Positions 36,076-37,714 of a stretch of 64,000 nt of DNA are shown here, in pieces; position 1 is the first letter of the stretch; each line of letters starts with the position of its first letter. Made by a program: the position numbers and the translations under genes. This DNA comes from an uncultured Solirubrobacterales bacterium (GTDB lineage: Bacteria > Actinomycetota > Thermoleophilia > Solirubrobacterales > JBBDJG01), in the NCBI GenBank assembly GCA_963774075.1, contig CAVZDP010000001.1, positions 108,572 through 172,571 on the forward strand. The letters run 5' to 3'. Under the pieces are notes generated by a model. The model was not told where the DNA came from. It made no database searches and saw only the letters and a program-made list of their open reading frames with translations.

Positions 36076-36855
36076 GTGACGGCCTGCAAGCTCATCCTTG
36101 AATACGACGGGCGTGCGTTCGCCGGCTGGGCGGCGCAGCCGGATCTGCGGACGGTGGAGGGCGAGTTGAGCAGGGCGCTCGCCACCGCTCTCGGGAGCGA
36201 GGTGCGGCTGTCGGTCGCCGGACGTACCGACGCCGGCGTGCATGCCTGGGGCCAGGTGGCGAGTTTCGCTCTCCCGCCGAACGCACCGGGGCCGCCGCGG
36301 CTCGTTGCCTCGCTGAACGGGTTGCTGCCGCACGACGTGGCGGCGGTGAGAGCCGAGACCGTGCCGGAGGGATTCGACGCTCGCACGGACGCGCTCTCGC
36401 GCACGTACTGCTACCGCCTGCTCGCCCGCAGCGCTCCAAGCCCCTTCGAGGCCGGCCGGGCGCTCTGGGTGCAATCGCCGGTGGAGGAGGACGTTCTGTC
36501 GCAGTGCGCCGCGGCCCTCGTCGGCAAGCACGACTTCACGGCCTTCACGCCCACCGACACCGATCACGTGCGCTTCGAGCGCGACGTGATGATGACGGAG
36601 TGGCGGCGTACCGGAGACATCTTGGAGTTCTGGATCGAAGCCGACACGTTCATGCGGCACATGGTCAGGAGTCTCGTGGGGACCATGCTCGCTGCGGCTT
36701 CGGGCCGCCTCTCCGTCAGCGACTTCACCCGGCTTCTGGAGGGCGCGCCGCGCAGCGCCGCCGGCCAGACGGCGTCGCCGCATGGCCTCTATCTCGCGTC
36801 GGTCCGCTACCGACCGCCGTCAGACTGGATGCGAAGCCCGCGACTAACATCTTGA
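36076..36855 (+). CDS. truA: tRNA pseudouridine(38-40) synthase TruA
   Basis: GTG start; ..ILEYDGRAFAGWA.QP...TVEGEL..AL......V.L.VAGRTDAGVHA.GQV.. Confidence 0.93.
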   Translation: MTACKLILEYDGRAFAGWAAQPDLRTVEGELSRALATALGSEVRLSVAGRTDAGVHAWGQVASFALPPNAPGPPRLVASLNGLLPHDVAAVRAETVPEGFDARTDALSRTYCYRLLARSAPSPFEAGRALWVQSPVEEDVLSQCAAALVGKHDFTAFTPTDTDHVRFERDVMMTEWRRTGDILEFWIEADTFMRHMVRSLVGTMLAAASGRLSVSDFTRLLEGAPRSAAGQTASPHGLYLASVRYRPPSDWMRSPRLTS

Positions 36856-36859
36856 TCAT

Positions 36860-37714
36860 CTGAAAGTCCTCCTGACAAACGACGACGGGATCCAGGCTGC
36901 GGGCCTGAACGCGGTCCGCCGCGCGCTGCGCGACGTGGACGGCGTCGACCTGGCGGTAATCGCTCCCGGCTCGAACCGCTCGGCGAGCGCGAGGAGCATC
37001 ACCACCCGCACTCCGCTCTGGGTCGAGGAGGTCGACTTCGCCGACGGCAGCACGGGCTTCGCTACCGACGGCACGCCCGTGGACTGCGTCCGCTTCGCAT
37101 CGCTCGGGCTGATCGAATCCCAGCCAGACTTGATCGTGTCCGGCATCAACCACGGGGCGAACCTGGGCGACGACATCACGTACTCGGGCACGGTCGCGGC
37201 GGCGCTCGAGGGAGTGGTGCTGGGCATCCCCGCGATCGCCGTCTCCCAGCAGTCGATGAAGCGCGAGATGGACTTCCGCCTGGGCCGGGAGTTCGACTTC
37301 GGACTCGCAGCCTCGTTCACCGCGCGGTTGGTGCAGCTGCTCCAGGAGCAGCCTCTGTCGCGGGGGACGCTCGTCAATGTCAACTTTCCCGCGGTGCCTT
37401 TCGACGAGCTCGTCGGAGCGGAGGTGACGCGGCTGGGCAAGCGGATCTATCGCGACAGGCTCGAGCTCCAGGAAGAGGATGAGAGCGGGGAACGGCGCCG
37501 GCGCCTGTACCGGATCTACGGAGACGACCCTTCCTATCACCACGAGGAGGGCACCGACTTCGCGGCGATCGGGGACGGGAAGGTCTCGGTGACTCCGCTC
37601 CACTTCGACCTGATGGCCGTCGGTCAGATGGACGAGCTGCGCGGGTGGGATCTCTCGGCGCTGATCGCTCCACCCGCCGACGAGCGCATGGCCGAAGAGG
37701 TGGGGCCGAGCTGA
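36860..37714 (+). CDS. surE: 5'/3'-nucleotidase SurE, predicted CTG start
   Basis: The frame is open from 36848. CTG at 36860 gives (M)[25 protein letters not shown].., colinear with the SurE N-terminus MRILLSNDDGI. No ATG/GTG/TTG occurs in frame before 36935, and that start would remove the metal-binding NDD motif. Confidence 0.85.

Follow-up and report, generated by a model that had tools for sequence, protein, structure and literature searches.

A CTG codon at the start position of surE in an uncultured Solirubrobacterales bacterium

The stretch of DNA analysed here (the window) covers 64,000 nucleotides (nt) of contig CAVZDP010000001.1 from an uncultured Solirubrobacterales bacterium, an actinobacterium of soil, and contains the genes rpoA, rplQ, truA, surE and ligA in this order. 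We focused on the junction between truA, which matches Pfam PseudoU_synth_1, and surE, a housekeeping gene which encodes a protein of the SurE 5'/3'-nucleotidase family. An earlier note, made from the sequence alone, had proposed that surE begins with the CTG at 36860, 4 nt after the truA stop, and that the first canonical start of the frame would remove the catalytic N-terminus. The proposal was followed up by comparison with the protein family, with orthologous loci in genomes and metagenomes, and with the sequence signals upstream of the gene.

The surE reading frame and its first codon

The surE frame is closed upstream by an in-frame TAA at 36845-36847 and is open from 36848, where the codons CAT CTT GAT CAT precede CTG 36860-36862. 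The following codons (36863-36889), AAA GTC CTC CTG ACA AAC GAC GAC GGG, read KVLLTNDDG, and a protein started at this CTG would begin (M)KVLLTNDDG. According to the codon listing and the open reading frame (ORF) track, no ATG, GTG or TTG exists in frame between 36848 and GTG 36935, from which the mechanical surE ORF runs (36935-37714). Four other near-cognate codons lie in frame before this GTG (CTG 36872, ATC 36890, CTG 36902 and CTG 36923), and among all the near-cognates only CTG 36860 corresponds by homology to the codon at which relatives start. The frame limits and the lack of a canonical start given in the earlier note are thus borne out.

Alignment to the SurE profile (PF01975), suggested in the earlier note as a check, gives the CTG-started protein a score of 196.9 bits, above the gathering cut-off of 22.1 bits; the match covers profile positions 1-188 of 189, and profile position 1 aligns at residue 3. 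With fifteen solved SurE sequences the alignment starts at query residue 1, 2 or 4 and places NDDG on NDDG, which agrees with the colinearity described before. T6, N7, D8, D9 and G10 are invariant among 274 distinct relatives, and the conserved NRS and GINxGxNxG segments are also present; the window protein is colinear with the family over its full length. The N-terminal DD motif, described as characteristic of the SurE family (PMC8475336), is included only if translation begins at or before 36860. Compared with the family (PF01975; T. maritima, E. coli/Salmonella and T. thermophilus structures), the window protein is alike throughout; the difference lies only in the start codon, hence in the public gene model, and nothing differs at the protein level. 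As part of the best explanation, the surE product would be a functional, full-length 5'/3'-nucleotidase.

The public surE protein (P0001 in NCBI, ENA and Logan) has 259 amino acids and starts at GTG 36935, the first canonical start in the frame, and one may ask whether this shorter SurE is the real product. However, the PF01975 match of the GTG-started version begins only at profile position 26, and positions 1-25, with the first strand and the DD motif, are lost; the loss of the motif had been expected in the earlier note. Position 26 is not conserved as V (121 of 274 relatives; L or I in the rest), and the sequence before GTG 36935, read directly, contains neither a Shine-Dalgarno (SD) sequence nor a -10 box of the TANNNT type. 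The 25 codons upstream of it are conserved in amino acids against a synonymous divergence (dS) of ~0.7-1. GTG 36935 was rejected as the true start on the lost profile positions, the unconserved V26 and the missing upstream signal; it is probably not the biological start, and a natural 259-residue product is highly improbable. P0001 is an N-terminally truncated gene model, an artefact of gene callers that permit only ATG, GTG and TTG.

The best genome matches of the window SurE come from Solirubrobacterales/Thermoleophilaceae metagenome-assembled genomes, with only 76-77% protein identity. Start codons were read in 80 species-representative genome loci and 80 metagenome loci, and two further loci (L082 and L083) were fetched separately. 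The codon aligned to CTG 36860 is ATG or GTG in all 80 genome loci. Among the metagenome loci it is ATG in 48, GTG in 28 and TTG in 2, while 2 more contain a GTG one codon upstream; L082 and L083 both contain TTG. Relatives lacking the N-terminal motif, which according to the earlier note would have spoken against its proposal, were not seen: none of the 160 loci is without NDDG. From this comparison CTG 36860 sits exactly at the ancestral surE start, and it would have to be the initiation codon if SurE keeps its catalytic N-terminus, a claim supported because the homologous codon is a start (ATG, GTG or TTG) in ~160 relatives.

The base itself might be wrong, with a true A, G or T at 36860 turned into C by sequencing, assembly or consensus building. 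Every other examined species-level relative, bar one lineage, has a canonical start, and the source contig (360,719 nt) was assembled from a metagenome, both of which would fit an error. Exact look-up of the 259-residue product found a Logan contig (L081; 2.4 kb, run SRR28061724) that is identical to the window over ~2.3 kb, including CTG 36860. This contig ends in Nextera adapter sequence and was therefore assembled from Illumina reads, by a different pipeline, and it reads CTG at the place where the earlier note had considered that resequencing could give ATG. Moreover, another lineage, sampled independently of the window (L164 and L166), also shows CTG at this codon, as does L171, and the neighbouring conserved genes rpoA, rplQ, truA and ligA show no evident frameshifts. 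Assembler or long-read error is ruled out by L081, a minor variant at the population level is still compatible with it, and overall an artefact is very unlikely.

Table 1. Positions of the features at the truA-surE-ligA locus (window coordinates unless another locus is named)
Feature	Position	Strand	Basis or remark
truA (tRNA pseudouridine synthase)	36076..36855	+	PseudoU_synth_1; 15-codon tail past the usual ...VRY end
TAACAT, -10-like hexamer (TANNNT), inside truA 3' end	36845..36850	+	conserved TANNNT in 147/156 relatives
truA TGA stop, 4 nt before CTG	36853..36855	+	ORF call; stop position unconserved in relatives
CTG, proposed surE initiation codon (decoded as formylmethionine)	36860..36862	+	homology to relatives' start; no canonical alternative; reproduced in Logan contig L081
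Full-length surE coding sequence, 284 codons plus TGA	36860..37714	+	PF01975; 15 solved SurE; conserved columns
Codons N7-D8-D9-G10, N-terminal DD metal-binding motif	36878..36889	+	invariant in 274; aligned to solved SurE
GTG, public-annotation start of 259-residue P0001	36935..36937	+	NCBI, ENA, Logan
surE-ligA junctions	window 37712-37730; L082 2855-2858; L083 2846-2852; L167 2355-2364		gap 2-10 nt, no evident SD
ligA, 10 nt after surE stop	37725..39806	+	probably co-transcribed or coupled with surE
Heptanucleotide repeats	L164:1-30; L166:58-90; L172-L174 upstream of surE; L175:735-768; one unit L082:1968-1975		

The -10-like box and the truA junction

Read directly, the 20 nt before CTG 36860 (GCGACTAACATCTTGATCAT) contain no GGAGG-like SD sequence. 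The earlier note had remarked on this too, and the SD-less state is normal for surE across the order. Instead, a TANNNT hexamer (variants include TATCCT, TAGAAT, TAACAT and TAGCAT) lies 6-37 nt upstream of the surE start in 147 of 156 non-redundant orthologous loci, and within 6-14 nt in 133 of them, with modes at 7 and 11; the background frequency is 0.0007 per position. The window contains GAC-TAACAT at 36842-36850, 9 nt before the CTG, and the closest clade keeps the box CGACTAACATCT both where it falls in a spacer and where it falls inside truA. The mycobacterial -10 consensus is TANNNT; SRN often stands before it, and a conserved -35 is lacking (Cortes 2013, PMC3898074). The GAC before TAACAT fits the SRN prefix. 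In addition, leaderless genes, ~20% of all genes in Actinobacteria, are marked by a TA signal ~12 bp ahead of the start (Zheng 2011, PMC3160421). The conservation of the box before surE argues for a leaderless or short-leader mRNA from a promoter of its own, with a predicted transcript start at ~36857-36859 and the CUG 1-3 nt from the 5' end.

A scan of 35700-37100 for E. coli-type sigma-70 promoters and intrinsic terminators found nothing, with a consensus unsuited to actinobacterial promoters, which have no conserved -35. An Rfam scan of 35400-37100 gave only a chance match (E 0.94). RNA folding around the CTG predicts the first 12 nt of the putative transcript as unpaired, and the folding energies are no different from those of shuffled sequences.

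Window surE shares the near TANNNT with its SRN-type GAC, the lack of an SD sequence and the lack of a conserved -35 with the leaderless genes of Actinobacteria and Deinococci (PMC3898074, PMC3160421). However, documented leaderless genes start with AUG or GUG, while the codon is CUG in the window and UUG in several sister lineages, and the 9-nt spacing in the window implies a leader of 2-3 nt rather than none. By its architecture surE would work like a leaderless or short-leader gene, and it is not filed as a canonical one because its 5' codon is neither AUG nor GUG.

The box itself lies within the 3' end of truA. Window truA carries a 15-codon C-terminal tail (RPPSDWMRSPRLTS) at 36808-36855, which runs through the TAACAT box, and it reads CGC TAC CGA where several close relatives read CGC TAC TGA. 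The length of this tail varies freely among relatives, some of which end at the TAA of the box. The ORF listing confirms that the truA TGA ends at 36855 with the CTG 4 nt on, and this juxtaposition exists because of the lineage-specific 15-codon extension. In the 117 loci with truA found upstream, the truA stop overlaps the surE start by 4 nt (ATGA or GTGA, distance -4 nt) in 10, the remaining gaps are mostly 10-80 nt, and many are at least 126 nt. In the second CTG lineage, ~33 nt separate the CTG from the truA stop before it.

The earlier note considered termination-reinitiation coupling of the CTG to truA plausible. The 4-nt spacing and the 10 overlaps within the clade sustain this part, while the spacing proves to be lineage-specific and the conserved feature is the -10-like box. 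Judged from these distances, reinitiation after truA is a plausible contributor rather than the conserved logic of the junction. Translational coupling is known from ATGA-type overlaps and 70S scanning, and PMC9031893 lists 'readthrough or 70S scanning initiation'; the window shares with it a close upstream stop and a probable common operon transcript. The juxtaposition in the window is, however, unconserved, and a promoter-like box lies at the junction, which makes coupling optional and not defining. A stricter version, nested within the use of the CUG, would let ribosomes reach it only by reinitiation from the truA UGA 4 nt upstream, with no independent surE transcript and no 5'-end-dependent loading. 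It gains from the tight spacing, from the truA tail past VRY that brings the stop beside the CTG, and from truA standing directly upstream in most relatives, where the 10 overlaps indicate that coupling occurs in the clade. It loses from the order-wide conservation of the TANNNT box rather than of the truA stop position, and from the wider gaps in most loci and in the other CTG lineage. We regard obligatory reinitiation as unlikely.

An out-of-frame mini-ORF (TTG ATC ATC TGA, 36852-36863) ends with a TGA that overlaps the CTG as CTGA, similar to the ATGA overlaps mentioned above; this is probably coincidental.

A programmed +1 frameshift at UCU UGA U might also fuse TruA to SurE, and a shift after TCT 36850-36852 would indeed enter the surE frame at GAT 36854. 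However, the window reads ACA UCU UGA UCA in place of the slippery prfB-type CUU UGA C, and a stimulatory SD sequence upstream is absent. A tRNA-Ser on UCU is not known to re-pair on CUU. The truA stop varies freely, and a fused ORF is found in no relative. The fusion was rejected for the non-slippery site and the unconserved stop position, and it is hardly credible, the least probable of the explanations weighed.

Weak starts in the closest relatives

Among the 120 closest database proteins, 11 have a literal L at the position homologous to the start, and the annotation of 4 has a truncated N-terminus. Since JGI translates the first codon literally, this L stands for TTG in those proteins. 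At the DNA level, TTG is found at the homologous codon in L082, L083, L165, L167-170 and L172-174, and the start region of L171 reads GTG-CTG-AAG. CTG is found at the homologous codon in two loci, L164 (JGI sample 3300009012) and L166 (ENA ERZ27315255), where no in-frame ATG, GTG or TTG lies upstream of the CTG and the only near-cognates are ATC and ATT. The proteins of L164, L165 and L166 (P0056, P0059 and P0090) are publicly annotated as truncated SurE from the internal Met19 (MRRAL..). L164 and L166 are inferred to start at their CTG, and L165 at a TTG 7 nt after the TAACAT box.

A neighbour-joining tree places the window beside P0002, which has an ATG start and ~85-86% identity, and L164 and L166 fall in another subclade amid ATG, GTG and TTG lineages. 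For example, the ATG-started P0122 (L175) shares a 90% cluster with the L164 protein. On this tree, CTG appears to have arisen at least twice at the surE start in the subclade, and the subclade as a whole appears to have drifted to weak surE starts. The path to the window CTG may have been a substitution (A>C or T>C) or the loss of 2 nt in ..CATCT-ATG... CTG recurs in a clade rich in TTG, which suggests a movement to weak starts, by drift or by selection, and not a fixed regulatory device.

In one subclade, AT-rich heptanucleotide tandem repeats (CTAATTA, CTAGTTA or GATTACT) lie between the TAACAT box and the surE start. Their copy number varies by sample, with one copy more in L174 than in L173, and the CTAATTA arrays contain stop codons in all three frames. 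The window itself has no such repeats. They could represent a variable leader or an insulator. It is possible, in our view doubtful, that the repeated downgrade of the surE start (from ATG to GTG or TTG, then to CTG at least twice) together with the variable repeats keeps SurE, and perhaps ligA, at a tunable, very low and SD-independent level of expression. The CUG would then be a genuine start on a leaderless or short-leader mRNA, for which Actinomycetota offer no documented case.

Proposed use of the CUG, its rivals and its meaning

On balance, we consider it probable that CUG 36860 is a weak, functional and SD-independent start of surE. In this proposal, the surE start changed from an ancestral ATG, GTG or TTG to the near-cognate CTG, and the initiator tRNA would decode CUG, inefficiently and without an SD sequence, to give (M)KVLLTNDDG... 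The TAACAT box 9 nt before the start would place the 5' end of the transcript ~0-3 nt before the CUG and permit 5'-end-dependent ribosome loading. On read-through rpoA-rplQ-truA transcripts, ribosomes that end at the truA UGA may in addition re-initiate at the CUG. Provided that the CUG is functional, the short-leader route from the own promoter seems a better candidate for the main ribosome supply than reinitiation after truA.

The AUU of infC is an example of a near-cognate start in bacteria. With such starts the window shares a single-base near-cognate of AUG at a conserved start, presumed decoding by the initiator tRNA, and its omission by gene callers. Compared with infC/IF3, however, no autoregulatory logic is evident in window surE, there is no SD sequence, and the evidence is comparative only. 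SD-less initiation close to a -10 box is a known actinobacterial mode (PMC3898074, PMC3160421), and GUG is efficient on leaderless mRNAs in Mycobacterium and Streptomyces. In E. coli, CUG initiates at 1-2% of AUG, and AUU, AUC and AUA behave likewise (Hecht et al., 10.1101/063800). In Caulobacter leaderless reporters, near-cognates are much weaker than AUG, with GUG, UUG and CUG alike (PMC8459731). A CUG start would thus yield little protein, which fits the TTG trend of the clade and silencing of the gene equally.

ALTERNATIVES weighed here are start-codon loss, obligatory reinitiation, a sequence artefact, a product from GTG 36935 and a +1 frameshift. Start-codon loss is the main rival: the change from ATG or TTG to CTG would have silenced surE, leaving it recently inactivated or negligibly expressed as an incipient pseudogene. 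The low activity of CUG in E. coli (10.1101/063800), the drastically poorer near-cognates in leaderless reporters (PMC8459731) and the other apparent gene fragments in the window (an MFS half at 13481-14164 and the C-terminal half of a methyltransferase at 39822-40214) would all suit such a loss. Against it, the 284-codon ORF is free of stops and frameshifts, and the window SurE is off consensus at only 1 of 95 columns with at least 97% conservation, which is in the normal family range (0 deviations in 188 sequences, 1 in 61). Residues 2-13 are identical to relatives despite a dS of ~0.7-1. The ratio of nonsynonymous to synonymous divergence (dN/dS) is 0.15-0.25 for codons 2-25 and 0.12-0.20 for the remainder, where 24 codons are too few to discriminate. 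In the second lineage, CTG is present at two sites, and the divergence of the two alleles (L164 and L166) is mostly synonymous, with 17 synonymous and 5 nonsynonymous codon differences (dN/dS 0.12). Many sister lineages already use weak TTG, so low expression is seemingly tolerated or selected. Furthermore, ligA follows surE after 10 nt and may depend on surE translation. Taken together, the constraint results would argue against a long-standing inactivation of surE, and we consider start-codon loss improbable.

Several points weigh against a functional CUG. The organism is uncultured, and the evidence for use of the CUG is comparative. L081 may share its read set with the window assembly, in which case the two are independent at the assembler level only. 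The constraint tests give no date for the CTG mutation on the window's long terminal branch. Furthermore, 17 of the 22 differences between L164 and L166 cluster in codons 91-133, leaving 4 synonymous to 1 nonsynonymous outside; this cluster may be a recombination tract, which weakens the dN/dS test. SurE is reportedly dispensable for laboratory growth of E. coli (Li et al. 1994, cited in PMC8475336), a point that also speaks for start-codon loss, and a null allele could then persist. Finally, CUG is a poor initiator and leaderless initiation is especially dependent on AUG (PMC8459731), and each extra leader nucleotide roughly halves leaderless expression in Caulobacter (PMC8459731).

The order rpoA-rplQ-truA-surE-ligA is identical in L082, L083 and L167, where the surE-ligA gaps are 2-8 nt. 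Translation of ligA may be coupled to that of surE, which would add selection for a translated surE. We also screened the 20 ORFs of the window whose first canonical start is preceded by a long open stretch, and only surE has a Pfam N-terminus upstream of that start, bar the two apparent fragments named above; with this single case, the window gives no sign of a genome-wide CTG habit. The short ORF 13481-14164 (minus strand) covers MFS_1 profile positions 22-180 of 347 and the short ORF 39822-40214 (plus strand) covers Methyltransf_11 profile positions 53-94 of 95, and in both the domain match sets in before the first canonical start. Each may be a gene fragment or a pseudogene.

Some further observations concern the surroundings of the locus. 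The rplQ-truA spacer is filled by a perfect tandem repeat at 35812-36053 (plus strand; 3.0 copies of an 81-bp unit at 100% identity). Its 36-nt core, with the hairpin CCGGC-GAAG-CCGG, recurs a fourth time, with 1 mismatch, 26 kb off at 61857-61892 (plus strand). The 81-bp repeat looks like a dispersed intergenic repeat element, and the N-terminus of P0103 (LRDSHDFRC...) suggests a similar element upstream of surE in a relative. In three large ORFs of the ribosomal-protein/translation region, at 3115, 6669 and 17832 (plus strand), the first canonical in-frame start is a TTG with a strong SD-like sequence before it; the open frames concerned (3103-6672, 6636-10733 and 17820-19019) look like rpoB, rpoC and tuf by size and position. 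TTG accounts for ~11 of 48 first starts in the window, and its use seems unusually high in this genome.

In summary, the proposed CTG start of surE is a rare but known kind of event that is missed by gene callers, and no new mechanism is demonstrated. The public models of the window surE (259 amino acids) and of at least three relatives (P0056, P0090 and P0059) are N-terminally truncated because gene callers disallow CTG or skip weak TTG, and such models would be scored as SurE without the catalytic motif. The locus provides a natural series of ATG, GTG, TTG and CTG at one homologous, SD-less and promoter-proximal start, and this allelic series could be used to test how far the leaderless or short-leader initiation of Actinobacteria tolerates near-cognate codons.

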